Source: a virus. Taken from it: a DNA stretch of 64,000 bases. Shown one piece after another: positions 12,629 to 49,803 of this stretch. The stretch spans positions 96,001 to 160,000 of IMG/VR virus record IMGVR_UViG_3300047562_003246; one strand, written 5' to 3'. A program made the position numbers and the translations under genes. Every line of letters starts with the position of its first letter. Positions within the stretch are counted from its first letter, which is position 1. The notes beneath the pieces were generated by a model. The model ran no database searches, had not been told where the DNA came from, and saw only the letters and a program-made list of their open reading frames with translations.

Positions 12629-13479
12629 ATACTGGTATAACAAACGTACGTGGTTGGCAAAATGACCAGGAAAGTCAGATCTATCCTTTGTTGCGGGCTT
12701 ACGACGTACCAAGAGCTTTACTAACGGACTTGTCTATAGCTGCGGAAGACGAGAACATTTTCATCGATACGCTTTACTGTGGCGATGGTCAGGTCTCTTT
12801 AATCTTGAGTGACTCGTCGGGAGTCGCAGCAGCACTGACAGTAGAAAATCCAGTACGAGGCGAGGTATACACGGTTGTCGATACTCGTTGTATGTTCTCT
12901 GTTAGTTTTGGACAAGCTGCTATCGAAGGGACGTATCGTAATAAAGAAAAACTATTTGTTTCACCGCAGTGTATCCATGTAACTGTCAGAAGTAACTTCG
13001 CAGTTTTCAGACAGGGTGGCCTTCCTTTAAATTCCCCGTTAAAGCTGACAGGTTCAAACGATATTTCCGTACGGTTAGGCTTCATGGACGAAGCTCAGAC
13101 AGAGCAAGCGTTATTTTTGTCGCTAAATACACAAGATGCAGGTATAGACGTACACGATAAGTACTTAGGATCCTGCGACCGCAGACCTGTCAGTCAAAAT
13201 TGCGAAGGCAATCAACCTATCAAAACTTTAAGTGGTGTTCCAAGCGATTGCTGCAACACGATATACATCGAGCTTCAGGGTGTATCGATCGCGCCGCTTA
13301 ATAACTACTGCGGTATCGCCATAGAGTCCGAGTTTACGCTGAAAGAGTCATGCCCAGCTCGGACGTTGACTAGCATAGTAGAAAGATCCGAAGAAGATTG
13401 TGAAAAAACAGACGAAGACGAATCAGACGATGTCGAGCAAGACGGCGCACCTGAAGGCGAAGAACCATTAACCAGCTAA
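12625..13479 (+). CDS. Cys-rich tail-associated structural protein, paralogue 3
   Basis: N-terminal WQNDQESQIYPL..LLTDLSI; PIKTLSGV segment. Confidence 0.5.
   Translation: MNTGITNVRGWQNDQESQIYPLLRAYDVPRALLTDLSIAAEDENIFIDTLYCGDGQVSLILSDSSGVAAALTVENPVRGEVYTVVDTRCMFSVSFGQAAIEGTYRNKEKLFVSPQCIHVTVRSNFAVFRQGGLPLNSPLKLTGSNDISVRLGFMDEAQTEQALFLSLNTQDAGIDVHDKYLGSCDRRPVSQNCEGNQPIKTLSGVPSDCCNTIYIELQGVSIAPLNNYCGIAIESEFTLKESCPARTLTSIVERSEEDCEKTDEDESDDVEQDGAPEGEEPLTS
13165..13178 (-). repeat. dispersed motif, 12/14 variant
   Basis: Plus strand TTAGGATCCTGCGA, read as L-G-S-C-D. Confidence 0.65.
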
Positions 13480-15864: not shown

Positions 15865-18401
15865 ATAAGATTGTTTTGTTCGAAGCTAGCTGGGGTGCTG
15901 GCGGTGGAACAACTTGGAGCATCACTGACGGACTGAGCATCAAACTTGAGTTGCAACCGTTGCCGTTTGATCTCGGTGAAAACGGTTCTGGACCTAATGA
16001 AAACGGCGTATTCTGTGTCAAACTGAAAGGTAAATATCCTGTCTTAAATAATTTCGTAGAAAGATCTCTCGATATAGCTTGCCAGTTAGAAGGTCAGTCT
16101 ACGCTTGTTGAAAGTATTGTTAGCGTGCGAGCCTATAACTACGGCTTGCTTGCTATCGTCAATACACCAGCAACCAAAGCAGGATCTGTAAGGTCTGTTC
16201 GAATTGAAAGAATCAATTCTGCTGAATTTAAAATGTATTTTTATTTCAGCGTGTCTACTAGCTCGGAGGATACAGATGGTGATGAAGATCCGCCGATTGA
16301 TCCTCCGACTGATCCGGTCGAATGCTCGACAGTTATTCAACTAGGTAGACAGGATTGCGGTCAGATCGAAGTCTGTGACTTGGTGCAGATTGACTTTGGT
16401 AGTTGTTACCTTGAAGAGCCTCCCGTTAGACGCGAGACGTGTTCTGCTATTTTTCCTGTCGGTCCAATGTCGGCACCACCTCCGCCTCCTTCAGAACCTG
16501 GACCACCTGGACCGCCCGGTGATACTGGCCCTGCGGGTCCTGCTGGTCCTGCTGGTCCCGCTGGTCCTGCCGGTCCTGCTGGTCCTGCTGGTCCACAAGG
16601 CCCTGCCGGTCCTGCTGGTCCCGCTGGCCCTGCCGGTCCACAAGGTCCCGCTGGTCCTACTGGTCCGCAAGGTCCTCCAGGACCTGGAGGCTGTACGCCC
16701 TTTGTCTATGTGTTTGGTCAGGTTAGGCACGTTCAAGAGTGCCCTACTCCGCCTATAACAATTAATGTCTACCCGATTCCAGAATGTAATTGGATCATTG
16801 TTTACACTTATTACGTATGTCCCGGCGGATACGGTGGTGGAGGCTGTTGCGATCTAATCTGTTGTGACGGAATCTACATACCCTATAACACTACGACAGC
16901 CGTATCTTTAGCGACACAGAACGTAGCTAACGATAGTCGGTTTATAAAAGAAACGTATCCGACGATGCATGCGGATAGACCGGGTTCTTTATCAATGCCG
17001 TGGTTCATTGGGTTCAAGCAAAGACCCGATGATCCGTATAACTGCGACCCGTGCGATATCGCTAGTCCTGCATATAATCCTCGATACTGCATCGAATGCA
17101 AAGATCCAAATAATGCTCCGGATTACTGCCGAGAATGTGATCCTTGCTCGGGAGAACCTATAGACGATAGAACCTGCGGACCATGTAATCCAGAGTGGGA
17201 AGGTTATGAAGCGGAAAAGTGTTACCCAGGTAATCCGTTTGGTTATGTTTTCTTACTAACAACTGACTTTGACAATAGAGATACCACAAGTATTCCAATA
17301 GATTACAACGTTCGAATTGCGCAGGATCCTACGATTTATCCAGCTACGCTGACACCTGGGCAGTGCGATGCGATTACTAATCCTGATGATCTTGTCGCAG
17401 AGTGTTGTGATCCTGCCGGGTATTACGTCGATCTTTGCTGTGACACGCAAATTTATTACTCGCCAGAGCGATGTTACGATCCCTGTGCCGACGACCCTAC
17501 TTCTCCAGGATGCCCAGAAGAACCTGATCCTCCAGTGGATCCTTGCTTGGATGTCGGTACTATTTCGTGCACACAAGAAGGCCAAATGCTGACAATATGT
17601 GAATGCCCAGGTGAGTGCATCGGAGAATGCAGCTGGGCATCTGCACAAACTACAGAGTACGGCGAAACTGTGTTTTACTGGGTCAATTCTGATGATCCGT
17701 GTGCACAAGATTGTGATTGTCCTTATCCAGGAACAGCGCCGACAGGGCTCGGCCAGACGGCAACAACTATTTGCGGAGATACACCGCAGCCGTGCGACAT
17801 GGTTTGTGAGTGGGTGACCGAACTTAGTAACAACGAGCCTACATGGTCATTGCCTGTAGATCCGTGTGATCCTAGTTGTCCTTGTCCTGCTCCTCCGAGG
17901 TTACCTTCTTCTTCAGAAGCTGGTCTTGTGTATTACACAGACTGTGGTGGTACTCCAGAGATAGATTGTGTCAACGGTTATTGCCAATACGAAGCCAATG
18001 CTAGTTCGCAGTGGGAGCTTATTTATAGTTCTTGTGGTGCGCTATCTTGTCCGTGTGAAGAGCCGCTAAGTCCACCTAGCGGTCCTGGCGATACTGTTAC
18101 GACTAACTGCGGAACGGTATCCAGTGGTACTTGTTGTGACGGTGAGACACCTAATACGCCGTGCGATCCAAGTGACTCAGATATAGGTGTGATATGTCTC
18201 GACCCAGACACAAGCGAAAACTGTAACTGCACTTATACGTGCGAAAATGGTCAATGGGTAGTTGCGAATGCAGACTGTGGTGGAGGAGGTGGCCCAGGAC
18301 CGCTGTCTGTATACGACGACGTAGATACTTCACAGCCGTCTCCTTTTGTCGAGATGAATAGTCTATTTGAATCCGTGAAAGAAGAAATAAAAAACTTATA
18401 A
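15861..18401 (+). CDS. collagen-repeat, cysteine-rich putative tail fibre/adhesin
   Basis: 846 aa with about 21 uninterrupted Gly-X-Y triplets and repeated C-x-W..W..C..C-x-C-P..G..T-x-CG modules. Confidence 0.65.
16500..16688 (+). repeat. 9-bp tandem repeat encoding collagen (GPA/GPQ/GPP)n
   Basis: GGTCCTGCT/GGTCCCGCT/GGCCCTGCC units, read directly. Confidence 0.95.
17319..17332 (+). repeat. dispersed motif, exact copy
   Basis: In the collagen gene, read as A-Q-D-P-T. Confidence 0.9.
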
Positions 18402-20717: not shown

Positions 20718-21812
20718 CTAATCAACGGCATCGGAACCTAACGAGTCAATCAAAAGCGCCTGGAGGACAGTACTTCCAGGTGCTTTTTTCGTTTGCACCC
20801 TCGATTCTGATTTGTTATTGCTCTTGTCATCTTTTTTGCATGCGCAGGATCCTACAGAATTTTTGCACTTCTTGCAGGACTCCGGTTTCATATCTGCAGC
20901 TGCGGCTTTTTGCAGCTCAACCGGAATTTGATTCGCTTTCTTGGCAATCTCTTTGATGCGACTTGGGCCAAAGAAATTTTCAAGTTCGATGTACTGCAGG
21001 AACTTACCAGGAATGTTCGCAAACTCTGATTGCTTGTAGAACCCGCCTGCAAACGGATAGACCGGTTCGTCGTGCTGAATGATATCGTCCCACGGTGCTC
21101 CGTCAGGGCGAATCTGACAAGCAGCTTTAACGATTTCGGGTAAGCTTTCGTTAATCTCGATAAGATCTTCTTTGTCCAAGACAACTGTTGCAAACTTTTG
21201 TGTCATAAGCATTGTGGCGTTGTCGGTCTCGAAACCATCGAATACCAATCTTCCTCCGACGGCTCGGCTGAATCCTTCGAGATCAGATACGCCGCCGAAG
21301 CCTGCGATCTTGGTAATCCTTGGATCGGTTTCAGACTGTAACGTTGCGGTGATTCTCGTAGCTAGGTCGTGGGCATCGATAGCATCGATAGCCTTTGTCC
21401 CGGCTGCTTTAATTAACCACTGCTGCGCTGCGCGAGCTTCTTTAGCATTGCGAACGGGGTATTTTATGCTAGACGCTGCCGCTTTGTCCATAGCTTGCTT
21501 GTACTGCGAGATACTTGCAGTAAGATCATCTATGATACCGAAGTAACAGGCGCTTTTCATCAACCTATCTTTGACGGTAGGATTGGTACGGTTGTTTTCT
21601 TCCGCGTCCAAAGCGAAAGAAGCAAAACTCAACCAACACGCAGCTTTATTATGAGTTGGATAACGAAGCTGCGGTAATCGCTGCGCAAAGTATTGAGGCG
21701 ACAGCGAAGGGGGTGCCAAAGATTCGGGATCAGCTGTTTTGACGTACTCAGGTAATTCAAAAGCAGCCGCGATTTTGGTTAGGTTAGCTCCCGAAATTTC
21801 AGGCAGGATCAT
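20718..21812 (-). CDS. hypothetical protein (possibly head-associated)
   Basis: 364 aa minus-strand ORF with no competing long plus-strand ORF; C-terminal CKKC..CAC. Confidence 0.6.
   Translation of the reverse strand: MILPEISGANLTKIAAAFELPEYVKTADPESLAPPSLSPQYFAQRLPQLRYPTHNKAACWLSFASFALDAEENNRTNPTVKDRLMKSACYFGIIDDLTASISQYKQAMDKAAASSIKYPVRNAKEARAAQQWLIKAAGTKAIDAIDAHDLATRITATLQSETDPRITKIAGFGGVSDLEGFSRAVGGRLVFDGFETDNATMLMTQKFATVVLDKEDLIEINESLPEIVKAACQIRPDGAPWDDIIQHDEPVYPFAGGFYKQSEFANIPGKFLQYIELENFFGPSRIKEIAKKANQIPVELQKAAAADMKPESCKKCKNSVGSCACKKDDKSNNKSESRVQTKKAPGSTVLQALLIDSLGSDAVD
20752..20789 (+). terminator. rho-independent terminator
   Basis: AAAAGCGCCTGGA / TCCAGGTGCTTTT stem (one G.U pair) followed by a T run; ends the plus-strand block and overlaps the 3' end of the convergent minus-strand ORF. 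Confidence 0.75.
20842..20855 (+). repeat. dispersed motif, exact copy
   Basis: Inside minus-strand CDS 20718..21812, read as V-G-S-C-A. Confidence 0.9.
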
Positions 21813-21813
21813 T

Positions 21814-24366
21814 GTGATTTCTCTATTACGTGACTTAGATTTTCAAGCAATTGCTAGACACTTACAACTAAATATACAAAGATTTTCATTACCCACATCG
21901 TCCAATTGTCCTTTATGTCGTGTAGGTAAAGTCCGGTACCTTCAGGACATGTGTAGTGGAGGAGTAGTTTTTTGTTGCTCAAAATGCAATCAGTCTGGTG
22001 ACTTGATCGATCTACTGTCAAAGATCTGGAACAAAAACGACATGTCAGTTTGTTACGAGCTGCGTCGTTTGCAGCTCAGTCACATGGGTAACTTCGATCC
22101 GTTTAAAGTTGTCGAAGACAGAAGTAAGTTTAAGGCATTACTGCAGAAAAACGAAAGGGTACTGGCTACCATCATGAATCCTGGTTTGCGTGACAGTGGC
22201 GCAGCCCAGGTAGCTGTGCAGCGACTAGGTGTTCGCATCGTGCATTCTTACGTCGACACCAAGGATTACTGCCCAAATATTTTTGGTTGTGCGTCTAGAA
22301 GTCAAATCAAGGCGGCGGAACAAAAACTCTCGACCAAGAATATTAAGCACGATCTACGCAGCAGATCACAACGCCCAATGCTTGCTGTCCCTTTTAGAGA
22401 CCTACCTAACAGACTTGTTGGGTACACACTGATCGATCGAGACGAAGTAGAACTGCGACCTGATTCACTCAATTGCACGCTGAAGATTGGACAATACAGC
22501 GAAGACGGTGTAGCCTGTCATCCGTCTTTGTTCTTTGAGAATCGGGGTTCAATACTGATAACGACTAACGTGTTTATCGCCGTTCAGCTTTGGTCTAAAG
22601 CCGCGTTTCAAAACTACACTAAACTACCTTTGGTAGCTGCCAAAGAACAAACATCTTGTTGGCAATTGTTTGGCGACAAATTCAAAATAGTGTTAGCTTT
22701 TGGCAAAGCAGATCTATCGGCTATCAGGCTCGCAGTAAGACTAGACTGTCTGCTTTACGTCGCAGAGCTTAAAGGTACGTTTGAAAAGTGGATGCATAAC
22801 CTGCGTGTAAGCAGGTTACATAAAACAGCGCAGTCAGATAAAAAGCATTGGACGGAAGCTATCGCCAGCGTTGTTAATAAAATGCAACTCGACGAAGCGA
22901 GCGAGTACTTACTTAAACTTGGGCTGCAACCAGACGAACTTGATAGGCTCAAGCAAACTGGCAATACGAAGTTAATCAAAGCTATCAGATATTTTGGTAG
23001 CACGAACCATAATATTCGCTCAGTCAACTATCGTAGCGGCGTCATCGAACAATCTGCCGGTGCGTGGTACTTCTGCTACAAGAACAAAAAAGAGCAGATA
23101 TCTAATGCCATTATTACGCTCAAAGAGATAATCAATTACGGTAATCAGTCAATCGCCACTGTGATTATTCACTATCACGAAAAGGTTGTAGAGTTTCAAG
23201 TTGACTATGAAGAGTTTCAATCGAACACTTTTAAGATTATTCACAACCAGTGCTTGAAGAATCAGTTTACGTTTGTCGTACCTAAGCATTGGCAGTCAGC
23301 GTTGCATTCTGTGATGCTGCATTTCTACAAGCCTGACATTCGAGAAGGTGATGCTTTTGTTGGTTACGATCATGTGACGCGGAGCTGGACAACACCAACG
23401 CATACTGTTGTTAATAACAAAATTTATAAAAAGCCTCCGATGCCAGCTTGGATCGATATTCCTGGCAGTATGCGAGTTAAAAATGCAGGCTGGACAAAGC
23501 ATATACGTGGTAGTTCTCCTGTGGTTGTTGCGTCCATTATTGCTGCGGTCAAACAAGCAACATGTTCTGCTGTCGGGGCAGTCAAGCCTCCTCTATTTTT
23601 TACAGGGCACACTTCGCTTTTATGTATGCGAGAGTTGGCAGAAGCTTTGGGAGCTATGGTCGACGTTAAAGATGTACACGATTGGTTTGTTGTCAAAAAG
23701 TCGATCAACGAAAGTACGAAGCAACCATCTATTAAACAAATCGACCAGGCTTATATCGACTCTGCTTGGATGCTAGTTACCGATGCTCAAAGATGTTTCG
23801 GCGCATTTAACGGCGCGATGTCTTTACACGATGCAGGTAATGAATTATTTGTTCCACAAAACAACCATCGAGAATATCTAGCTACAGCGTTTCTGTATTT
23901 ACTTAAACATTGGCACGGAGAAACCGATATCGTTGATTACTGTTTAAAACGATTGGCGACTAGGAATATTCACTTCGTCAAGAAAAGCATTGAAGCATGT
24001 TTACACTTAGACGTAGATCCATGCACAGCGTTGGTAGCACTACTAAAGGAAATTCAAAGTCGCGGAACTTTACTCTATGGAACTGACGCCGAAGTCTCTA
24101 AGAAAACAAACGTCGTCCGCACCATGCCCGACAAGCGCACGGTCATTGTTCCGACCGCCGTGATCGAACGAGCAATTAATTCGATGTCGCTTGGCACCTA
24201 TGACTCCGTGAAAATTATTTACAGGTTGTCTAAGAGTCCAAGCTACAAAGGATTCGATAGGCTAAACGGCATGCAAGGTTGGCTTATAGATAAGTTGTTC
24301 TTTGACCAAGCAATAAACGATAAGCGTATCAAGGTTGACTCATTTCAGCTTAGAATCGTTGGCTAA
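21814..24366 (+). CDS. large Zn-finger primase-like / replication-associated protein
   Basis: ORF 21739..24366; GTG at 21814 avoids overlap. N-terminal CPLC..CSKC..GDLIDL resembles the CHC2 primase zinc finger; MLAVPF..LVGY segment; no clear catalytic TOPRIM acidic motif. Confidence 0.45.
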   Translation: MISLLRDLDFQAIARHLQLNIQRFSLPTSSNCPLCRVGKVRYLQDMCSGGVVFCCSKCNQSGDLIDLLSKIWNKNDMSVCYELRRLQLSHMGNFDPFKVVEDRSKFKALLQKNERVLATIMNPGLRDSGAAQVAVQRLGVRIVHSYVDTKDYCPNIFGCASRSQIKAAEQKLSTKNIKHDLRSRSQRPMLAVPFRDLPNRLVGYTLIDRDEVELRPDSLNCTLKIGQYSEDGVACHPSLFFENRGSILITTNVFIAVQLWSKAAFQNYTKLPLVAAKEQTSCWQLFGDKFKIVLAFGKADLSAIRLAVRLDCLLYVAELKGTFEKWMHNLRVSRLHKTAQSDKKHWTEAIASVVNKMQLDEASEYLLKLGLQPDELDRLKQTGNTKLIKAIRYFGSTNHNIRSVNYRSGVIEQSAGAWYFCYKNKKEQISNAIITLKEIINYGNQSIATVIIHYHEKVVEFQVDYEEFQSNTFKIIHNQCLKNQFTFVVPKHWQSALHSVMLHFYKPDIREGDAFVGYDHVTRSWTTPTHTVVNNKIYKKPPMPAWIDIPGSMRVKNAGWTKHIRGSSPVVVASIIAAVKQATCSAVGAVKPPLFFTGHTSLLCMRELAEALGAMVDVKDVHDWFVVKKSINESTKQPSIKQIDQAYIDSAWMLVTDAQRCFGAFNGAMSLHDAGNELFVPQNNHREYLATAFLYLLKHWHGETDIVDYCLKRLATRNIHFVKKSIEACLHLDVDPCTALVALLKEIQSRGTLLYGTDAEVSKKTNVVRTMPDKRTVIVPTAVIERAINSMSLGTYDSVKIIYRLSKSPSYKGFDRLNGMQGWLIDKLFFDQAINDKRIKVDSFQLRIVG

Positions 24367-24523: not shown

Positions 24524-25258
24524 ATGGGCAACGAACAGCAAAAACCCAAAGATCCGCAAAACCAACATGCAGAGGAGTTATCGCAGCTATACGCAAAACT
24601 GCAAGAGGTATCTCGGGCTATCCGAAAAATAGAATCTGAGCAGCATATTTATTTTGGAGAAGATGTTGCCAAAGAGATATGCGAGCAATCGTTCATAAAA
24701 GCAAACAACCAAGAAAAATTCAGAGTCGATCAAACTATCGAGCGTAATTTTTACACGGCAATGTCGTACTTAGTTCTCTCTGTTATGGAGGGAAAAATGA
24801 GTCACAGTTTAGCTCTTCGATGTATACCTACGCTTTTAGACAAAGCACTAACAGAACTGATGGCTACAAAAATGGCCTCAGTTCTTACGTCTTCGCTGCA
24901 GGAAAACTACCCAGCGATAGCTACACTTATCGAGTTTCGCGTTCCGTTTCCTTACTCAGAAACATCGACTTGTCCTGTGTTTGTGAGCGTGGCAGGTCCT
25001 CCTGAAAACAGATATCACTCTCTCGGCATTCTTGGAATATTAAACGGCATGCTGGCAGAGTCGCAAAAAGTTAACGACGTTCCCATCCCAAAGATATTAC
25101 TTGAAGCTGTCTACGGTGAATTCGAACACGCTGATGGACAAAAAGAAAGCGGTTTAATCGCATTTGCTATAAAGTCCATGACTCCGAAACAACAAGAGAC
25201 AACAGATGCTGTGCTCTTAGGAGACGAGGCTGAACCTTTAGACGATGCGATAAATTAA
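24524..25258 (+). CDS. hypothetical protein
   Basis: ORF 24485..25258; AAAGGA Shine-Dalgarno precedes the ATG at 24524. Confidence 0.65.
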   Translation: MGNEQQKPKDPQNQHAEELSQLYAKLQEVSRAIRKIESEQHIYFGEDVAKEICEQSFIKANNQEKFRVDQTIERNFYTAMSYLVLSVMEGKMSHSLALRCIPTLLDKALTELMATKMASVLTSSLQENYPAIATLIEFRVPFPYSETSTCPVFVSVAGPPENRYHSLGILGILNGMLAESQKVNDVPIPKILLEAVYGEFEHADGQKESGLIAFAIKSMTPKQQETTDAVLLGDEAEPLDDAIN

Positions 25259-27192
25259 ACACCAAGTGCTTCCCAAATTTCTTTAACGCGGCTGCTTAAA
25301 CTCTCAGAAAGAATGAAGCTTCCATCGTTTAACGCAGCTGCGTCTTGTGGTGTAAAGAAATCATCCAGCATCAGGTTGATATCCGGATAACCGAACTGGT
25401 GCCAAATTGCAACCGTCCCAAAGTTGACAGCATTTGCAAAATCATCACTAGTACCTACTAACTTTGTGATAATCGAGAACGAACCACCACCAGCTCTTTC
25501 TATCTGTTCTTGCTTAAGGTTAGTAAAGTCAGACAACAAGGCTCGTCCCATTGTTTGCAGCGTATCTTTTTCGTCACCCATGTACGGATTGAAGAATCGA
25601 ACCCTGCCAGCTTTGATAGCCTGAGCGAGTAATATCAAGCTTCTTGTTTTATCTAGTGTGTAATAAACACCTTCACCTGTTTCAGGATTGGATGCGTGTC
25701 TGCAAAATAATTCTTGTTTTAGGTTTGCGCCGTATCCAATACGAAAAATATTTGTATGTACAGAGGCTTGCATTTTCATAATCATTTCAGAAAAGTAACC
25801 GCCGTTACCTGTGTCGTAGGCAAGCCCATTACATCTGAATCGATTGAGTGTTTCAAGCACCATGCGAGTTTCTAATTGTCTGTCTAATGGGTTAGCGTTT
25901 TCCCAGCCCCATAAGACATCCACAGTACCGTGGTGCGATAGACCAAGCACAGCTATTTTTGTTCGAGAAAGCGGAGCAGGTCCTGCGTCATTTTTGTCTA
26001 GATACTTTAGCGAACCACCACCCCAGTCAATCGCCAACATGCGATAAGAATAATCTTGCACTAAATCTTTGGCGCGATTGACATTGTAGGGAATCCTCAA
26101 ATTAGCTGCTCGCTTGATATCCATTTCACCAAGCAGACCTGCCCCTGAGTCAAACGGTTCTCCGTAGACTTCGTTGTAAAGTCTGTACTTAGGTAACAAT
26201 GGATCTTTGACAAGCTGAATAATCTGCGCCCAGCGAGTTTGACTTTGATTGTGCCAAGGCATGATGGGTTGAGGAATATGGATACCTCGTTTTGTGAACC
26301 ATCGATCAGGATATCTAGATTGCCAGTGACCGTCTTGAACAAAGATAGGTTCTTTGCATTTAGCACAAATAATACCAGGACGCTCTGGACTGATGTCTGG
26401 TCGCCACGGACCAATCATTTTTTCAAGATCGTATTCAACGCTGCAAATGTTTTCTTTTTTGCACGTCTTGTTTCTACATGGAATTACCCATTCACTTTGG
26501 CTGCTTTCTTTCCACTTATGTTGCAGCGTACCATTAAGAGTGAGTGGTGTTCCGCTGTAAACTTCGTAGTTGCCATGCTCGCTACCGTCCATCGTACGCT
26601 GAATAACGTCAATCACATCTAGTAATGTCAGCTGGACTTCGTCAATACGAATCTTGCGAGCACTAAGACCACGAACACGGTTCGCATCGTTGTATGCGTA
26701 AGCTAAAACAATGGTTGACTTGTTTGGAAAAGATCTCTGCAAAACTTGGTTAGCAGCTTTACGATCTATCAGCATCTTTTTGACCGGTGAATCTTCGATC
26801 ATTGGCTGAATGTAAATCGAACTAAGACGCCGAATCATTTCAAAAAATGGCATCACGTAAAGTGTCTTGTAGTTATCGACCATCACAGACTCGATGATCA
26901 TTTCAAGCACGTTGTGAAACGTCTTACCAGTTTGCCGAGCGCACATTTTGACCATGAGCATAACCATGTCCATGTCAAAACAGACTTCAAACGGAAAGTG
27001 TTTCTCTAGTGTGACTTGCTTACCTTCGTATCGAAAAAGTAACGGCAGCAGAGGTGCATAATTTCGCTGATCGCCGCTAAGCTGGAATAATGTAACAAGC
27101 GGTATTAGATCTGGATTAGCGTCAGCAGCTTTCTTACACCAAAGCAGCGCTGGGTTTTCCGGATTGCTAAAGTCTACAGGTTGGATAGCCAT
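25255..27192 (-). CDS. terL: terminase large subunit (GpA-like)
   Basis: Walker A-like ARQTGKT, Walker B VRGLSARKIRIDEVQ, coupling motif YSGTP, Zn-binding Cys pairs, nuclease motifs LAIDWGG and DDFANA. Confidence 0.9.
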   Translation of the reverse strand: MAIQPVDFSNPENPALLWCKKAADANPDLIPLVTLFQLSGDQRNYAPLLPLLFRYEGKQVTLEKHFPFEVCFDMDMVMLMVKMCARQTGKTFHNVLEMIIESVMVDNYKTLYVMPFFEMIRRLSSIYIQPMIEDSPVKKMLIDRKAANQVLQRSFPNKSTIVLAYAYNDANRVRGLSARKIRIDEVQLTLLDVIDVIQRTMDGSEHGNYEVYSGTPLTLNGTLQHKWKESSQSEWVIPCRNKTCKKENICSVEYDLEKMIGPWRPDISPERPGIICAKCKEPIFVQDGHWQSRYPDRWFTKRGIHIPQPIMPWHNQSQTRWAQIIQLVKDPLLPKYRLYNEVYGEPFDSGAGLLGEMDIKRAANLRIPYNVNRAKDLVQDYSYRMLAIDWGGGSLKYLDKNDAGPAPLSRTKIAVLGLSHHGTVDVLWGWENANPLDRQLETRMVLETLNRFRCNGLAYDTGNGGYFSEMIMKMQASVHTNIFRIGYGANLKQELFCRHASNPETGEGVYYTLDKTRSLILLAQAIKAGRVRFFNPYMGDEKDTLQTMGRALLSDFTNLKQEQIERAGGGSFSIITKLVGTSDDFANAVNFGTVAIWHQFGYPDINLMLDDFFTPQDAAALNDGSFILSESLSSRVKEIWEALGV

Positions 27193-27419: not shown

Positions 27420-27746
27420 TTGCGTAACGGCATACACCGTGTAGTTGTATGCGACAGCCGCATGTCCTCTGCTGGAGAGAGTGTCGTGGGAAAGTATGCC
27501 AACGACAGAAAAGCCCTGGAAGATCGCTTGATTCAACCAGGCAACCCCGAGGTTTCAGAAGCAACGTATGTAACATGCGCTGCGATGATCGGATTGGGTT
27601 ATGTTTTTGGAAGTGGACTTCTTGCTATCGTTGGTCTCGGTGCGCTCGTAGCGCGCGTCATTGTTGAAAGTCAACATGACTTGAGACAACGAGCAGCGGC
27701 TCAATCTTCCAAAAATCAACATGACTCTAACAATCAGCAGCCTTGA
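27420..27746 (+). CDS. small membrane protein
   Basis: Hydrophobic stretch AAMIGLGYVFGSGLLAIVGLGALVA; start may be the ATG at 27462. Confidence 0.5.
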   Translation: MRNGIHRVVVCDSRMSSAGESVVGKYANDRKALEDRLIQPGNPEVSEATYVTCAAMIGLGYVFGSGLLAIVGLGALVARVIVESQHDLRQRAAAQSSKNQHDSNNQQP

Positions 27747-28092
27747 ACTTCTGATAGCGATCCTCGGCGTTTGTCAAATTCTCGAAGTTTGGCGGCACGG
27801 TTCTATCTGTGCAGAATTTAAAGCCAAACTAGAAGCGGGATATTACATGTCCCCAGATAGTTTTCTAGTCAGATTACTCATGTGTAATTTCTGTCTGAGC
27901 GTCTGGGTGACAGGAGTGGTCGTCTTACTATTAGTTCTTCGACCACTCTTTCATGAATACGTAGCAAACGTAATCACGTTTTTGATATTGGTAGCAGGGT
28001 TGACGCGGGCATCTAATTTGTTACATGATGTTACCCGTCCCTGGAGTCGTACACCAAACTCAAAAGCTGTTGAAGAGAACAGCAAAAAATAA
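27721..28092 (+). CDS. DUF1360-like membrane protein
   Basis: LLMCNFCLSVWV motif between predicted transmembrane segments. Confidence 0.55.
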   Translation: MTLTISSLELLIAILGVCQILEVWRHGSICAEFKAKLEAGYYMSPDSFLVRLLMCNFCLSVWVTGVVVLLLVLRPLFHEYVANVITFLILVAGLTRASNLLHDVTRPWSRTPNSKAVEENSKK

Positions 28093-28098
28093 GTGAGA

Positions 28099-28133
28099 AG
28101 AGCCGCACAAGGTCACCAGTCTTGTGCGGCTCT
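28099..28133. other. perfect 13-bp inverted repeat upstream of the HUH-like gene (terminator or nick-site hairpin)
   Basis: AGAGCCGCACAAG-gtcaccagt-CTTGTGCGGCTCT; no clean U tract on the plus strand. Confidence 0.7.
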
Positions 28134-28188
28134 GATTTTGACTTCAGGCTAATTTCCCAACCCCAAAGCCAAACCTCAATCAATCACT

Positions 28189-29229
28189 ATGAATGTACCC
28201 GACAGGAAGTCTCGGGTCAAGAGCGTTCTCTCGCGATCCGTCAAAGAATTCGAAGAAATACAAAAGATAACAGGAGCTAAAAACCTACCTAAGTTCGAAC
28301 TGCTGATGCAAAACAAAGCACGAATTGTCCAGCAAACCAAAGCTGTTCTAGAAGAATCTTGGAACAATAGACTAGATGCTATATACCGAGGCGACATAGC
28401 GGACTCCCGCATGTTTCCTATCAAAGAGTTTCACGACAGACTCAACGATGTGGAACGCTGCTGCACAGAGTACACACGTTATGGTCCTGTGTTTGCGTGC
28501 CAGCAAAGTCTCGCATGTCCCATCTGTAACAGCCACGCTGCGTACGCTTTTGCTTCTCAAAGAACAGCGATGCTTTTTGAACAACTTGGAAAAGTAGATT
28601 ACGTCAAAGTTTTCGAAATCGTAATTAACTTTGGCGATGTGTACATGAGTTTTGCTCCAGAACGATTCGACGAACTTAGCCAAGTGCGAACAGACATACG
28701 AGACTTCTTCGCTAAACGCGATAAAGCTTTTCTGCTACAGGGTTCGAAACGAGGCTATCCAAAAACGTATCGACTACTCGATATGTTCATTCACTCTGCA
28801 CCGTCAACAGTAAACACGCAAATGATCTTCCCGCATCTGCATGTTGTCGGCGTACCTGTATCCACAAGAACAACGCTAGATGATTTTGTCGACGCAGTAT
28901 ACGCCGCTTGCAAAAACTGGAATATTCAGGCTGGGGTAAATTTTTCACCTTCAGAAACTTTCTACGCGAAAAAAGCTTCAGGCAAAAAAACAAAAAACAC
29001 CAAAGACTTTTTCAGAAAGATGCACTACTTAGCGAGGTGTATTAAACCAAGTAGTCACAACGGTAATTCGTATCTGAGCACCGTGACAAGCGTACCTAGA
29101 ATCTTGCGGCAGCGAACAAGTAAATCAGGTACCACAGTGAGCGAGCAATACCGAAAAATTAAAGCTGCTGGTAACGCCAAAATAATCGCTAGGTTTGATA
29201 GCCAGGTTTCACAGTTCCGAATAGTGTAG
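28189..29229 (+). CDS. putative HUH endonuclease, rolling-circle Rep-like
   Basis: C..C-x5-CPIC zinc cluster, hydrophobic motif-I-like FEIVINF, HUH motif FPHLHVV (28834-28842), and downstream candidate catalytic Tyr in KMHYLARCIK (29026), in the order seen in Rep_1/IS91-type enzymes. Confidence 0.6.
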   Translation: MNVPDRKSRVKSVLSRSVKEFEEIQKITGAKNLPKFELLMQNKARIVQQTKAVLEESWNNRLDAIYRGDIADSRMFPIKEFHDRLNDVERCCTEYTRYGPVFACQQSLACPICNSHAAYAFASQRTAMLFEQLGKVDYVKVFEIVINFGDVYMSFAPERFDELSQVRTDIRDFFAKRDKAFLLQGSKRGYPKTYRLLDMFIHSAPSTVNTQMIFPHLHVVGVPVSTRTTLDDFVDAVYAACKNWNIQAGVNFSPSETFYAKKASGKKTKNTKDFFRKMHYLARCIKPSSHNGNSYLSTVTSVPRILRQRTSKSGTTVSEQYRKIKAAGNAKIIARFDSQVSQFRIV

Positions 29230-29239
29230 GATCCTGCGC
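29226..29239 (-). repeat. dispersed motif, exact copy
   Basis: Plus strand GTAGGATCCTGCGC; supplies the TAG stop of the HUH-like gene. Confidence 0.9.
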
Positions 29240-29447
29240 AGTCGCTTAGGTAACTCAAAATGCGGCAGTCCTACTACTAATGGAAACAATTCCTCTAGGC
29301 GCGAAAAGTTTTTATAAAACAAATCGCGAATTTTCAAAATTTCATTGGGTTTTTTGGAACTTGTTCAGCAATCCCCATCAGGAGTATCTACCCTTGTCCA
29401 CACAAACCTTCAGACACACGCACTCAAACCCACACATCACTGCAATT

Positions 29448-30020: not shown

Positions 30021-30068
30021 CTCAGTAATCACTTTTTGTTCACTCCACTTAGTCCAGGATCAAACCAA

Positions 30069-31277
30069 ATGTCAACAACAACAAAAAGCAATCACCCACT
30101 CGCAGATCTGTGTCTACCAGTCGAACAACTCTACGCAGAAGACCACATCTACCAACTTGTATCCTCGCAAAAACTAATCCAAGCTATTCCGACTCTAGAA
30201 CACTACATACCGCAAGTGCTATTCATGCACTCGAACCAACCAGAACTAACCAATCTGTACCTGCAGGCAATGCTGCTAAAGCACCAAAACCAAAATCTAG
30301 ATTTAACTCAGCCACTTCAAAAACTTCACTTAACAGCCGAGCAGTTCAGCAAGCTCGATCAGTACATCGCCGTCATTCCTAAATGGGTCTACCCACCACA
30401 AACAAAAGCACTCAAAATGACAACGCCGCCTGATTGTCATCCAGTTGTCGAACCGATTTACCAGTTCGCGCAGCTTCTAGACATGCCTGCCTCGGGTACC
30501 TACGCCCAAGACTACATGGACGATCAGCAATACACGATATTTATGCAAAGTCAAAAACCTGAAACGAGTCAATTCAAAAAACATCTGGTGACCAGGATCT
30601 TCGAAACACTCCACAACCAGTACGCTACAAACAATCCGGTTTACAGCAAAAGATATTTCTTGCGAACAGAAACAGATCTGGCACTGTACTCTTTACAGGG
30701 CTCCTCACGTATTACTGAAACCCAATTAAACACAGTACAAGATTTGCTTTATGCAGAGAACGTACTGACCCGTAAAGAACATCTTATGGACTACCGGCCA
30801 CTGAAGTTCATTCGGTTTTTGCTTGCAAGCAGACGCTATTTCTGCTTTGAGTTTTATAGGGTTTCACTTCATCGTGTCTGGTCGAGTAACAATCCATCTT
30901 TGTTCAGCGAGATTGACTACTCGAAACCAGAGAAAATTACACAGCAGTTATTTCATAACCTCGATAACATGCGTCAAGACTTCGAACTTGAAGTCACTTA
31001 TGATCGTCAGAAATTTCATGAACTTACTACAGGAAAAATCACTGCACAGCAAGCTGCAGAGACAACCCTGTCGGCAGATCTAGATGCTTATCCGGCAAAT
31101 AATCTGACCGTGACTCTGCCGATGTGTACAGCCACAACCAACGCAGTAGCCTTGCTGTTTAGTTTGGCGTCTCAGTTGCCTAAGTACACCATGTACCATT
31201 CGTACTTGGCTAAAGACTTCAAAACCCTTCAGCAAAACCTGGAACAACCCACGATGACCGTAAGCTCCGTTTTGTAG
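30069..31277 (+). CDS. hypothetical protein
   Basis: ORF 30036..31277, ATG at 30069; its TAG stop lies inside a 20-bp palindrome. Confidence 0.65.
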   Translation: MSTTTKSNHPLADLCLPVEQLYAEDHIYQLVSSQKLIQAIPTLEHYIPQVLFMHSNQPELTNLYLQAMLLKHQNQNLDLTQPLQKLHLTAEQFSKLDQYIAVIPKWVYPPQTKALKMTTPPDCHPVVEPIYQFAQLLDMPASGTYAQDYMDDQQYTIFMQSQKPETSQFKKHLVTRIFETLHNQYATNNPVYSKRYFLRTETDLALYSLQGSSRITETQLNTVQDLLYAENVLTRKEHLMDYRPLKFIRFLLASRRYFCFEFYRVSLHRVWSSNNPSLFSEIDYSKPEKITQQLFHNLDNMRQDFELEVTYDRQKFHELTTGKITAQQAAETTLSADLDAYPANNLTVTLPMCTATTNAVALLFSLASQLPKYTMYHSYLAKDFKTLQQNLEQPTMTVSSVL

Positions 31278-31289
31278 GATCCTACAAAA
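31270..31289. repeat. perfect 20-bp palindrome TTTTGTAGGATCCTACAAAA (symmetric form of the dispersed motif)
   Basis: Read directly; core GTAGGATCCTAC at 31274..31285. Confidence 0.9.
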
Positions 31290-31334
31290 TAAAGCTCTTT
31301 AAAAGTTTACTTACACACACACGAGTTAAAACCC

Positions 31335-31606: not shown

Positions 31607-32281
31607 ATGAGCAAAATAAAACGACTAAGAAAATCCTTAGTTAAATCTAACCAAGATATTAGTACTACTAGAACAATAAAAGATTTACTTCTTGCGCTAG
31701 GTTATTCTCAAGCACTGTTCGACGTGGTTGTAATCACGGACGGTAGTGGGTCAAGCTGGCCAAAACCTACAGGATCAGCTGCCCTTGTTGCTGTTAGACA
31801 TCAAGAAGAAATTTTATTACATAGTTCTAGTAGTGCAGGTACTAACCAGACCGCAGAACTTGATGCGGTCTGTCTTGCAATGAGATACCTTTTAAGTCAG
31901 AATCATCACAAACAAAAGAAAGGATGCCGAGTACTTGTAATCACTGATAGTTTGCTGGTAGAAAATACTCTTAAGGGTATTGCAGAAGATCCAATCAAGT
32001 TGTATAACAATGCGACTTATTGTGACGTAGTATCGGGACTGCTAGCTATGGCTAGAAGAGGGTTCCGATATAGTGTGCATAGGTTCAGCCGAAATATTTC
32101 TCCTATGCATGCCGCAGTCGACGCCGCCAGTCGAGCCGCCCGATTGCAACAAGACGTACGAAGTGCTTATGATGTAGCACTTCAAAAGACACCTCAATCA
32201 AATCGAAGGAAAAACAATGCCAAAGAAAGGCAGCACCAAAGCACCGAAGAAGCTCGATCCAAAAAGCGTAGAACCCAATAA
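31607..32281 (+). CDS. rnhA: ribonuclease H (RNase HI-like)
   Basis: VITDGSG, TNQTAEL, VITDS and AAVDAAS give the D-E-D-D catalytic set. Confidence 0.8.
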   Translation: MSKIKRLRKSLVKSNQDISTTRTIKDLLLALGYSQALFDVVVITDGSGSSWPKPTGSAALVAVRHQEEILLHSSSSAGTNQTAELDAVCLAMRYLLSQNHHKQKKGCRVLVITDSLLVENTLKGIAEDPIKLYNNATYCDVVSGLLAMARRGFRYSVHRFSRNISPMHAAVDAASRAARLQQDVRSAYDVALQKTPQSNRRKNNAKERQHQSTEEARSKKRRTQ

Positions 32282-33227
32282 GTACCTGTATTCTGTAGCG
32301 CAGGATCCTACGACTAAAAGACTACGTGTCAACGCGATTTACTTTCCAGAGATAGGCAATGGCCCTTGTGTACCTTGCGGGGTCGTACTTGTGCTCGACA
32401 AGTCCATGAGTAAGATCTCAAGGGCTGGGTTAGATCCGACTGTTCCGTTTGGTACCGTCAAGCTTTTGCCATTTGAGCAAAAAGAACCAGCAGCTGAAAC
32501 AATCATGCTGACGCTGAATAGTTTCAGTTGCGAAGTTTTCCCAGAAGGTGAAATCAATTTCTTGATGGCGGCATCGGCATACGGACTAATCGTTTCGGCT
32601 CCCGAGGCTCAGCCGGTGGCAGAAGCTAAGCCAGAAACCAAGAAGGGTAAGAAAGCCAAGGAAGAAGAAGTCGTCGAGGAAGAAGAGCTAACCGACGACG
32701 ATGACCTGCAGGAAGAAGAGTCAGAAGAATCCGACGATAGCGAAGATGCTGATGACGATGATGACTCGGATGATGATGACTCGGATGATGATGACTCGGA
32801 TGATGATGACGCAGACGATGATGACTCGGATGATGATGATGATTCAGATGATGATTCAGATGATGACTCGGATGATGACTCGGATGACGATGATGACTCA
32901 GACGATGATGATGAGTACGAAGAAGAGGATGATGACTCGGATGATGACTCAGATGATGATGACTCAGACGATGAAGATTCAGACGATGACGATTCAGATG
33001 ATGATGACGACGATGCTGATGCTGATGATGAGGACGAAGAGATTGTGGAGTTCACCCCAGCAGAACTTAAGAAGATGCTGAAGAAGGTTAAGAACGCCGC
33101 AACAGTTAAGGTCCTCGAAGACATCGCCGAAGAGTTGGGAGAGGAGCTTCCAGCCAACGTCAAGTTGCCGAAGGCAAAGAAGCTTTTGATCGCAGTGATT
33201 GAAGGCGAGTTAAGCGCTGAAGAGTAA
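32217..33227 (+). CDS. protein with a very long Asp-rich tract and a small helical C-terminal domain
   Basis: About 125 mostly D/E/S residues (32661-33042); C-terminus VKVLEDIAEELGEELPANVKLPKAKKLLIAVIE resembles helix-extended-helix/Rho-N-like modules. Confidence 0.65.
   Translation: MPKKGSTKAPKKLDPKSVEPNKYLYSVAQDPTTKRLRVNAIYFPEIGNGPCVPCGVVLVLDKSMSKISRAGLDPTVPFGTVKLLPFEQKEPAAETIMLTLNSFSCEVFPEGEINFLMAASAYGLIVSAPEAQPVAEAKPETKKGKKAKEEEVVEEEELTDDDDLQEEESEESDDSEDADDDDDSDDDDSDDDDSDDDDADDDDSDDDDDSDDDSDDDSDDDSDDDDDSDDDDEYEEEDDDSDDDSDDDDSDDEDSDDDDSDDDDDDADADDEDEEIVEFTPAELKKMLKKVKNAATVKVLEDIAEELGEELPANVKLPKAKKLLIAVIEGELSAEE
32298..32311 (+). repeat. dispersed motif, exact copy
   Basis: In CDS 32217..33227, read as A-Q-D-P-T. 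Confidence 0.9.
32750..33030 (+). repeat. degenerate tandem repeat GATGATGATGACTCG/A (DDDDS)n
   Basis: Read directly. Confidence 0.85.
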
Positions 33228-47618: not shown

Positions 47619-49247
47619 GTGCCTAAGAAAATACTAAGGACCAGACTAATGCAGAAGAAGAAAAAAACCTTGGGTAGTTTGATTGCAGAAAATAATGCAG
47701 AGAAGCCGAAGGTGAAGCGTAAAAGAGGCTTGACAAGACCCGATAGAACTGTTGCAGAAGAGCCGAGAGAAGACTTCGTAGAGCAAGAAGAAGAAACTGA
47801 AGAGGTACCAGCGAGAAAGAAGAAGCGCGCAGGATCCTACGCAAAACCGATCGTAATGGATTTGGATGATATTAATAAAGCCAGCCTGTTGCCCGGCAAG
47901 TCGGATAAAAAACAGCCAGCTGCCTTGAAAAAGATTAAAGACAAGAACACCTATTTCTTGTACTTACAATCAAGCATGACATCTGCGTCTGAAAATTCGA
48001 TTGTGTCTGTTCGAGGTACAGCTTCGCGTGCGCACCTTGTGATGCCACTGCCGCTGCCGCTACAAATAACGATGCAGGTCAACGGTATACCGTATGGAAC
48101 TTTTATTGAAGTTGCCGGTGACAAGGGTTCGCTTAAATCATCGTTTGTGCTCGGGATGGCGAGAATATTCAACGGGTTTGATTACTCGTTACCTGACCAT
48201 ATAGGTTTTGCTGACTATGTTTCCAACGAGTCAAAATATCCCGATGGCCTAGTTAGTGCAATCTGTGGCTACGAGGATGAGCATTTGGCTTTGCGTCCAG
48301 ATAGCCTGTACGCCGTCAAGGCTCATCGCAGCGGATCGATGAACGAATGGCAAAAGATCATTCTTTCTCGACTTAAAGAGTACGAGAAGTTGGCTGACCC
48401 AAAACGCGGCTTGCCCTACTTGATCATTCTTGACAGTATTACTGCAAAATTGTTGGATTCGACAGCAAAAAAGATTGTCAAAGAAGGTATGGCGGATCGA
48501 GCGTTTTCGATTGAAGCAGATTCTATACGCCGGTTCATGGCAACTGTCATGAATAAGATCGAAGATTATCCGATCGTGTTTATGGGAGTTAATCACGTCA
48601 GGCGTGACAAAGAAATTGGTAAGTTTGCGGAAGTCAGGTCAAAACCAGGAGGACGCTACCTGAGTTATCAGGAGATTTTTGACCTAGACATGAAGCAGTT
48701 CAAGAAGCCCTGGAAGATTAACTCGCCAGATAACATTGATTATGCGTTTATTCATATGAACGCAACAAAGCTAACTGTGGAGAAAAGTTCTATCGGGCAG
48801 ACTTTTAATTCCTGCGTACTGTATTACTCGTATACGTACTCAAACTACTGTGAAATGCCAGATGGCTCTATTATCGCATTTAAGAGTAAAGATCCGCACG
48901 TCAAGCTCAGACAGCGAAGTAAATGGGAATGGGGCAGGTCGCTTTGTAATAAGATTGCTACGGCATCAAAAGATATTGTTGGAAAACAAAGAGCGAAACT
49001 CAACGATGTCTGTCGTGTAGACGCGGCTAATGAGCTTGTAGCTACGTGCAAGCAAATATCGAAAGTCGCGATGGATTCAGAGAAGCTAGGACGATTGATT
49101 ATGCAGGATGAGCGAATGTGTGAGAAGATCGCAGATATCTTTGCTGTGCAGCAATATCCGGTTTACGAACCAGGCACAGACTACTGCGGAATAAGAGGTA
49201 TCGAACGGAAAAAGAAAAGTGCTAAGGAGCTAAGCGATAGTGAGTAA
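47619..49247 (+). CDS. recA: RecA/UvsX-like recombinase
   Basis: NGIPYGTFIEVAGDKGSLKSS, LIILDSI, FMGVNH, KPGG; basic N-terminal extension. Confidence 0.85.
   Translation: MPKKILRTRLMQKKKKTLGSLIAENNAEKPKVKRKRGLTRPDRTVAEEPREDFVEQEEETEEVPARKKKRAGSYAKPIVMDLDDINKASLLPGKSDKKQPAALKKIKDKNTYFLYLQSSMTSASENSIVSVRGTASRAHLVMPLPLPLQITMQVNGIPYGTFIEVAGDKGSLKSSFVLGMARIFNGFDYSLPDHIGFADYVSNESKYPDGLVSAICGYEDEHLALRPDSLYAVKAHRSGSMNEWQKIILSRLKEYEKLADPKRGLPYLIILDSITAKLLDSTAKKIVKEGMADRAFSIEADSIRRFMATVMNKIEDYPIVFMGVNHVRRDKEIGKFAEVRSKPGGRYLSYQEIFDLDMKQFKKPWKINSPDNIDYAFIHMNATKLTVEKSSIGQTFNSCVLYYSYTYSNYCEMPDGSIIAFKSKDPHVKLRQRSKWEWGRSLCNKIATASKDIVGKQRAKLNDVCRVDAANELVATCKQISKVAMDSEKLGRLIMQDERMCEKIADIFAVQQYPVYEPGTDYCGIRGIERKKKSAKELSDSE
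47827..47840 (+). repeat. dispersed motif, exact copy
   Basis: In recA, read as R-A-G-S-Y. Confidence 0.9.
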
Positions 49248-49803
49248 CATGGACCCCATGCGATTTCTTGCGAAGAAAAAAGATCTCCGCAGGAAAAACT
49301 CAGCTGGTCTCGACGGCAAGGGTATCGCCGCCAGGATGAACGTCAACTTGGCAATCAAGCACATATTCCAAGGCGCTGAAAGGCCGGAGTTATTGAGAGC
49401 TTGTTGGCGTTATGCAGAGGACGCAGGAAGAGACTATTTGAAGTTTGAGGATATGGACCAGTTCTTAGGCACGTTTATGCGGTTCAAGCTTCTGACAGAG
49501 AATAAAGCCAGCACAGGTATCCTCAACGCAGTCGGACACTATCTGGACGGGTTCCCTAAGAAACTCATTAAGAATTACGAAGACTGGTACAAGGAATGTG
49601 AGGATACGACGCCAGAGGCGATACCCATTATTGTGCTCAAGCTACCTAACCTAAAGTGCCAAATGGGCGTTTTGAGGGAAGGTGCTTTGGGTACTGATAC
49701 TGCGGGTAGCAGTGGTATCGTGTACGTTAGCGAAGAAGCTAGCTATGTGCTGCAGTCGTGCAGGGCGTTTGGAGCAGAGATAGCGGGCTACTTGAATCAG
49801 TAG
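49240..49803 (+). CDS. hypothetical protein
   Basis: 187 aa ORF; its TAG stop is part of a motif copy. Confidence 0.6.
   Translation: MSNMDPMRFLAKKKDLRRKNSAGLDGKGIAARMNVNLAIKHIFQGAERPELLRACWRYAEDAGRDYLKFEDMDQFLGTFMRFKLLTENKASTGILNAVGHYLDGFPKKLIKNYEDWYKECEDTTPEAIPIIVLKLPNLKCQMGVLREGALGTDTAGSSGIVYVSEEASYVLQSCRAFGAEIAGYLNQ

Follow-up and report, generated by a model that had tools for sequence, protein, structure and literature searches.

Replication initiators of the HUH (His-hydrophobic-His) type are well known in plasmids, single-stranded DNA viruses and P2-like phages, and are rare in very large tailed phages. Among them, the Rep_1 initiators (PF01446; pC194 RepA, pUB110 RepU) and the related inovirus REP_ORF2-G2P proteins (PF23343) are about 330 amino acids (aa) long, and they present a Cys cluster (C-x(n)-C-x4/5-C-P-x-C-N) before the motif-1 strand, an HUH followed by hydrophobic residues, and a single Tyr on a later helix. 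Here we describe a gene with the same arrangement, located at 28189..29229 on the + strand of a 64,000-nucleotide (nt) stretch of viral DNA (hereafter, the window), which corresponds to bases 96001-160000 of the 185,237-bp IMG/VR virus record IMGVR_UViG_3300047562_003246. The record is estimated to be 88% complete, has 44.7% G+C, and carries 194 of its 204 open reading frames (ORFs, simple ORF call) on the + strand; the genome is that of an uncultured, jumbo-type phage of roughly 200 kb (at least 185 kb). With a probability of about 0.58, we read the gene as a resident phage gene for a highly divergent Rep_1-like HUH endonuclease that would act as a rolling-circle-type initiator nickase.

The ORF of 346 aa is open and present as the first-pass annotation had claimed, with all the motifs reported there: C91/C92, C104, C110 and C113, PHLHVV at residues 215-220 (28831-28848), and Tyr280 (29026-29028). 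It is a real gene. None of Pfam, PHROGs, NCBIfam or the PDB sequences recognises its product, and tblastn and blastn searches against a phage collection retrieved nothing usable. HMMER, run over all of a set of 1.84 billion representative proteins, retrieved only three homologues (E values of 4e-38, 1e-6 and 1e-4), and a profile search of a 5.8-billion-sequence set added no further ones.

The four family members are mutually 20-31% identical. The residues kept in all of them are C91, P100, C104, C110, C113, F200, H202, P215, H216, H218 and V220, together with K269, T271, D273, Y280 and K286; that is, a Cys4 cluster, one His, the HUH motif, and a single Tyr with a nearby Lys. No second conserved Tyr is present among the four. 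On these alignments, the putative catalytic residues are under purifying selection.

Along the + strand, the invariant C91, C104, C110 and C113 (28459..28527) may form a zinc site that precedes the catalytic core. The predicted metal site (28792..28848) joins His202, probably the third metal ligand, to the invariant Pro215-His216-Leu-His218-Val-Val, on two strands of a beta-hairpin. Tyr280, the likely catalytic nucleophile, lies with Lys286 in a putative nucleophile helix (29005..29046) preceded by K269, T271 and D273. The HUH motif falls on predicted strand 212-223 and Tyr280 on helix 271-282 past strand 251-261, which is the Rep-class order (Tyr C-terminal to HUH) and not the relaxase order.

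At the structural level, an AlphaFold2 model built on this shallow alignment reached a mean predicted local distance difference test (pLDDT) score of 60 overall and 65-87 in the core. Its elements follow as strand 138-147, a helix, strand 194-205 (with His202), strand 212-223 (HUH), helices, strand 251-261 and helix 271-282 (Tyr280). A domain-only model agrees with this beta-alpha-beta-beta-alpha-beta-alpha core, and a prediction restricted to the core was no better. The predicted topology fits a Rep-class HUH protein. Foldseek against the predicted viral structures of BFVD gave a best E value of 3.6e-4, and its named matches were a microvirus replication initiator, a densovirus non-structural protein and a rudivirus replication protein, next to two uncharacterised proteins.

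Against the PDB, Foldseek retrieved nothing below an E value of 1e-3, with M20-peptidase domains at E values above 6e-3. VIA-align, run with the whole model and with the domain model, did not tell HUH proteins apart from ferredoxin-like folds in general: its top match, the SIRV1 Rep (2x3g, Z 8.1), was tied with unrelated ferredoxin-like domains. Since the PDB searches tie HUH with such domains and the PDB holds no Rep_1 structure, the PDB evidence is simply compatible with this fold. Thus, the fold check that the first-pass annotation had proposed gave a divided answer: the AlphaFold2 topology fits HUH and the named BFVD matches are HUH-type initiators, but the PDB searches did not discriminate. 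The SIRV1 ORF119 Rep is still the best solved match to the catalytic core (116 of 116 residues, root-mean-square deviation 4.9; Z 7.8 against the domain model), although it is a 119-aa dimer that lacks the N-terminal Cys4 and the helical region.

ESM Atlas, profile-profile alignment and the viral fold matches all point to a remote kinship with the Rep_1 (pC194/pUB110) class, which is the nearest one by language-model features and by predicted structure. Among the ESM Atlas feature neighbours listed, 15 of 30 (scores 0.96-0.97) were clusters with Rep_1 in 17-41% of their members. The structural neighbours had template modelling (TM) scores of 0.53-0.58 across 248-266 residues, and in four of the five listed the family share was 97-100% Rep_1 or 100% REP_ORF2-G2P. 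One Rep_1 neighbour cluster also contains Zn_Tnp_IS91 (10% of the cluster).

For the profile-profile alignment, a sample of 201 genomes held no Rep_1 sequences, and plasmid and phage records were used instead: the Rep_1 profiles were built from pUB110 and pC194, and later enlarged with inovirus and large-phage Reps. Aligned to them with hhalign, the four-member family gave P values of 0.0015, 0.0012 and 0.00055 (probability 17-30%), whereas the controls (reversed Rep_1 profile, terminase profile and SbcC profile) gave P values of 0.2-0.8. The alignment was collinear at three places, the Cys cluster, the motif-1 strand and the HUH. The C-Q-x-S-L-x-C-P-I-C-N of the query aligned with C-K-S-R-L-C-P-M-C-N of Rep_1, the strand past the Cys cluster with the FLTLT motif-1 strand, and PHLHVV with the Rep_1 HUH. 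The Cys4 of the query aligned with the invariant Cys cluster of pUB110-type Rep_1 proteins (C86, C91 and C94, with C63 upstream). Moreover, one homologue weakly matched Pfam REP_ORF2-G2P (E value of 0.055) across a region spanning the HUH strand.

Considering this evidence together, it is very probable that the product of 28189..29229 is a Rep-class (Rep_1-like) HUH nuclease beyond the reach of any curated model. The protein differs from described Rep_1 proteins in several respects. The protein of the window is below every curated threshold for hidden Markov models (HMMs); Pfam Rep_1 (threshold 33.2 bits) matched none of the four homologues at E values up to 10, and neither Rep_1 nor REP_ORF2-G2P matched anywhere in the six-frame translation of the genome. 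His202 occupies the place of the Rep_1 R-x-x-E on the strand preceding the HUH. Unlike Rep_1 genes of small plasmids or single-stranded DNA phages, this gene is found in a phage of at least 185 kb, at a locus without a recognisable double-strand origin.

The first-pass annotation had judged the architecture to be nearer to a plasmid or IS91-type Rep than to a short RAYT, and the N-terminal Cys4, the HUH, the single Tyr and the length of about 340 aa agree with this. An IS91/ISCR transposon was considered and rejected: there is no match to PF14319 (Zn_Tnp_IS91) or PF04986 (Y2_Tnp) at E values up to 10, the gene is single-copy in the genome and in the searched loci, its slot is shared with a related phage contig (L184, 54.8 kb), and just one Tyr is conserved.

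At the functional level, if the protein is a Rep-class HUH nuclease, a role as replication initiator is reasonably likely. The first-pass annotation had kept a rolling-circle initiator as its fallback, and we find it the best reading, supported by the Rep-class architecture and the kinship to Rep_1. By analogy with the pC194 and pUB110 Reps and with P2 gpA, the His202/His216/His218 site would hold a divalent metal. The enzyme would bind phage DNA, probably with the help of the Cys4 module, and Tyr280 would attack one strand at a specific site. The enzyme would then be joined to the 5' end, and the 3'-OH left free could prime rolling-circle (sigma) synthesis, whose concatemers would feed the terminase encoded next door. 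Catalysis, metal ligands, the replication role and the use of a single origin are all proposed here on the model of HUH nickases that start rolling-circle replication, as in Rep_1 plasmids and phage P2 gpA (PMC5714925).

The gpA proteins of P2 and phiX174 (Phage_GPA, PF05840) are a second useful comparison. As proposed for the protein of the window, they are phage-encoded HUH nickases that start sigma or rolling-circle replication on their own DNA, and P2 shows that a tailed double-stranded DNA phage can depend on an HUH initiator (PMC5714925). They differ in having two Tyr residues (Y-x-x-x-Y), no Cys4 and an origin inside the gene, and we saw no sequence or profile match between them and the protein of the window.

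The surroundings of the gene show that it is a resident phage gene and not a transposon. Upstream lie a lambda-gpA-type terminase gene on the opposite strand (25255..27192) and then three small genes, the last of which encodes a DUF1360 membrane protein (27721..28092). Downstream there are two genes of unknown function, an RNase H gene (31607..32281), a gene for a very acidic protein, one with a weak metallophosphatase (Mre11-like) signal, one for an SMC/SbcC-like protein, and a helicase gene. Contig L184 presents the same gene order, with the homologue P0004 in the same slot. The terminases are 60% identical, versus about 21% for the Rep-like proteins. Since position and order are shared with L184, the gene was inherited with the phage, even though it is fast-evolving.

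More distant relatives were collected by scans with the terminase and SbcC, and most of these 31 are at 40% identity or less. In them, the slot beside the terminase is variable and filled with unrelated genes; since all 31 lack the Rep-like gene, it is not essential to the wider group. The one among them at 60% identity (L208) is a 1.3-kb fragment without the gene.

The first-pass annotation had placed the gene between two elements on which the enzyme might act, a hairpin upstream and a repeated 14-bp word downstream. The hairpin is a perfect 13-bp inverted repeat (28099-28111 / 28121-28133), as it had been described. It begins 6 nt past the stop codon of the DUF1360 gene (28090-28092), its stem has 13 perfect pairs (15 with G-T), and it is followed by the T-rich tail TGATTTTGA. 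The folded RNA is very stable (-28.2 kcal/mol, z -4.4), and a terminator scan picked the hairpin up. On its coding strand the genome has 14 hairpins that combine a perfect stem with a T-rich tail. The arm sequence is unique in the genome, which discards a repeated element. The most economical reading of 28099..28133 (+ strand) is a predicted intrinsic terminator of the DUF1360 gene, which could conceivably have a second role.

Nor is the hairpin conserved beside the homologues. In L184, the homologue starts 8 nt past the previous gene with no hairpin between them, and a strong terminator follows the gene instead; in L183, the contig of homologue P0002, no hairpin precedes it; and in L185 a hairpin is present with its T-run on the other strand. 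With the form and position of a terminator and no such conservation, the proposal of the hairpin as an HUH substrate is not supported. The same applies to the bracketing of the gene: the hairpin and the 14-bp word are unrelated sequences, and the TAG of the word also ends other genes. Contig L183 also carries a gene for a DUF1580 protein (L183:630-851), a family described from Rhodopirellula.

The word itself, GTAGGATCCTGCGC, is the most over-represented one of the genome, with 30 exact copies in 185 kb (10 on the + strand and 20 on the - strand). That it is dispersed, as initially noted, is well founded: the window has 18 matches with up to three mismatches, against 1.1 expected. Including two one-mismatch variants, there are 32 copies (12 + and 20 -), about one per 6 kb, of which 21 are within genes in several frames, seven are intergenic and four are at gene edges. 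The exact copy at 29226..29239 (+ strand) is part of GTAGGATCCTGCGCA (29226-29240), and its TAG is indeed the stop codon of ORF 28189..29229. However, the TAG of the word also stops the genes at 49240..49803 and at 181217..181558 of the genome, so this placement is common and not a mark of the Rep-like gene. In a symmetric variant, TTTTGTAGGATCCTACAAAA, a perfect 20-bp palindrome at window 31267-31292, the TAG is the stop of ORF 30036..31277. Thus, the copy at the stop codon belongs to an array that spans the genome and is not specific to this gene.

Two further observations concern the word. A mirror-type variant, GCGTAGGATCCTGCGC, is found at window 47826-47843. Several intergenic copies outside the window (genome positions 2113, 21797 and 74024) directly follow a T run, with stable folds upstream of them (-10 to -14 kcal/mol), as though placed right behind intrinsic terminators.

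An inverted partner of the word, TGCGGCAGTCCTAC, is present at 29261..29274 (+ strand) as the first-pass annotation had reported, but the inverted doublet drawn from it is at chance level. Among random genome positions, 5% have a partner with up to three edits within 80 nt, and of the 30 word copies this one alone does; the doublet fold of -9.9 kcal/mol ranks at about the 5th percentile when compared with random 61-mers from the genome. This degenerate look-alike is probably not a feature.

RAYT proteins (TnpA-REP, IS200/IS605-type Y1 transposases) are about 150 aa long, lack a Cys4, and sit between inverted, hairpin-forming extragenic REPs. The locus resembles them in that an HUH enzyme adjoins a dispersed short word starting with GTAG, and differs in its 346-aa, Rep_1-like protein and in a word that is stemless, mostly intragenic, and on one side of the gene only. 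A RAYT with REP elements was rejected: the protein has a Cys4 and no Y1_Tnp match, and the copies are largely intragenic and without stems. The REP/RAYT-like pair suggested at first is not sustained by a 30-copy array that is mostly inside genes, has no hairpin of its own (no stem beyond AGGATCCT), and touches the gene on one side.

Even so, the enzyme might read the word, either nicking its roughly 30 copies, as in the interrupted DNA of T5, or spreading it. A copy abuts the stop codon of the Rep-like gene, and both gene-bearing phages on long contigs also have an array. In L184, the core is changed symmetrically with respect to GTAGGATCCTGCGC: GTAAGATCTTGCGC occurs once and the symmetric GCGCAAGA-N-TCTTGCGC three times, one of them directly past the stop of the homologue, while L183 has GTAAGAATTC 13 nt past its stop. 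The related positions of L184 are 2072-2085, 11000-11016, 11525-11541, 13164-13180 and 17061-17068 (compare 29226, 31274 and 32298 in the window), and two intergenic positions are shared, past the Rep-like gene and before RNase H. This suggests that the word co-evolves with a reader, with some sites remaining in position. Read in reverse complement, the word starts with GCGCAGG, which fits the T5 major-nick consensus R/GCGCRGG (PMC3517423), and 32 of the 39 genomic GCGCAGG are inside the word.

Yet about 11 of the 32 copies lie at gene edges or in intergenic DNA, so a copy next to any given gene is unremarkable, and with a second shared intergenic site ahead of RNase H (window 31274, L184 13164), common descent explains the positional match. 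The word lacks a hairpin of the kind usual for HUH enzymes and its copies are not enriched for inverted partners. In T5 and tf the nicks are confined to one strand, and those shown for tf have ligatable 3'-OH/5'-P ends (PMC3517423), whereas the word copies are distributed 10+/20- and an HUH cut would leave a protein-linked 5' end and not a ligatable nick. The base before GCGCAGG is not purine-biased, with T or A commoner than a purine-only rule predicts. In the terminase and SbcC scans, no relative separated the gene from the array in either direction; exact-word scans of viral and genome collections gave single chance matches only; and in a 163-kb terminase relative (G203, classed as a provirus in IMG/VR) no word is dispersed. 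What is repeated there is a 22-mer in tandem, with 11 copies of CACCCGCAAGCGCGTGGAG recurring about every 61 nt (L205:13738-14355 = G203:C1:133738-134355), which looks like a CRISPR-type array and not like the dispersed word. Overall, we hold it very improbable that the HUH enzyme acts on the word, and a shade more so that a Rep_1-like HUH enzyme reads the array by nicking or attaching at GTAGGATCCTGCGC. If true, it would imply a genome interrupted as in T5, or many points of entry for replication or recombination. It would also be the first case of an enzyme matched to a phage site array of this kind, and of a viral HUH nickase with dozens of chromosomal targets.

The reading as a divergent Rep_1-like initiator has several points that weigh against it. 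The Pfam Rep_1, Pfam REP_ORF2-G2P and NCBIfam models do not score the protein, the hhalign probability is low (17-30%), and the Tyr motif (Y-x5-K) lacks a Glu at Y-4, unlike E-x-A-K-Y-x-x-K in Rep_1. The alignment underlying the model holds just four sequences (mean pLDDT 60), and generic ferredoxin-like domains dominate the PDB fold searches at equal Z. Regarding replication, an origin or nick site was not found: the flanks of the four homologues share no 8-mer or longer, no pC194-type CTTGATA stands at a shared position beside them, and the GC skew is positive throughout and uninformative on the origin. The gene is also absent from the 31 more distant terminase relatives.

Part of this could mean that the protein is not an HUH nuclease at all, with H-x-H and Tyr incidental in a ferredoxin-like domain of another function. 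Curated HMMs without a match, a model from a shallow alignment, and PDB searches that put M20-peptidase dimerisation domains and other ferredoxin-like folds at Z values equal to or above those of HUH proteins would agree with it. But the full set of Cys4, His, HUH and Tyr is invariant at 20-31% identity, and independent pointers converge on Rep_1/HUH initiators with clean negative controls, which leaves this explanation improbable. Less remote, though still unlikely, is an active HUH nuclease that is not a replication initiator: a captured plasmid, single-stranded DNA phage or IS91-like gene, selfish or put to another use on DNA, for instance in resolving concatemers or termini, in recombination, or against the DNA of the host or of a competitor. 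The family is very small and evolves quickly (about 21% identity, versus 60% for the terminase), unrelated genes fill the slot in all the more distant terminase relatives, some Rep_1 neighbours in ESM Atlas also have Zn_Tnp_IS91 (the 10% of one cluster given above), and the phage owns a large replication and recombination set. On the other hand, position and orientation are conserved in two diverged phages; the gene is single-copy, without terminal repeats, hairpin ends or a second conserved Tyr; Pfam gives no match to Y2_Tnp or Zn_Tnp_IS91; and the putative catalytic residues appear to be under purifying selection. The Rep_1-like initiator nickase is the reading that we prefer.

Apart from the Rep-like gene, two proteins encoded nearby stand out. 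The acidic protein just past RNase H (32217-33227, 336 aa) has a tract of roughly 120 residues that is almost wholly Asp, Ser and Glu (DDDDSDDDD repeats) and resembles a DNA-mimic or histone-like-binding protein. On the far side of the terminase, an 875-aa protein (21739-24366) has a Cys-rich N-terminal segment and is not matched by any Pfam family; it may belong to the primase or initiator type, with a bearing on how replication starts.

A precedent for a Rep_1-type gene within a very large tailed phage does exist. A tblastn search with the pUB110 Rep over 50,697 phage records matched 24 of them, and Listeria phage LIS04 (OQ999172.1, 181.6 kb, Thornevirus) was the only large tailed phage. Its Rep_1 'protein Rep' (L238:2908-3660) lies beside a dCMP deaminase and a NucA/NucB nuclease. 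It differs from our case as a clear Rep_1 member of 250 aa, 31% identical to the pUB110 Rep, in another neighbourhood, and it has no BLAST-level homology to the protein of the window.

Finally, the tempting link between the Rep-like gene and the 14-bp site array is removed here as unsupported. On the reading preferred above, this four-member orphan family would extend the Rep_1-like branch past the detection of curated models, and would suggest how replication may be initiated in an uncultured lineage of jumbo-type phages.

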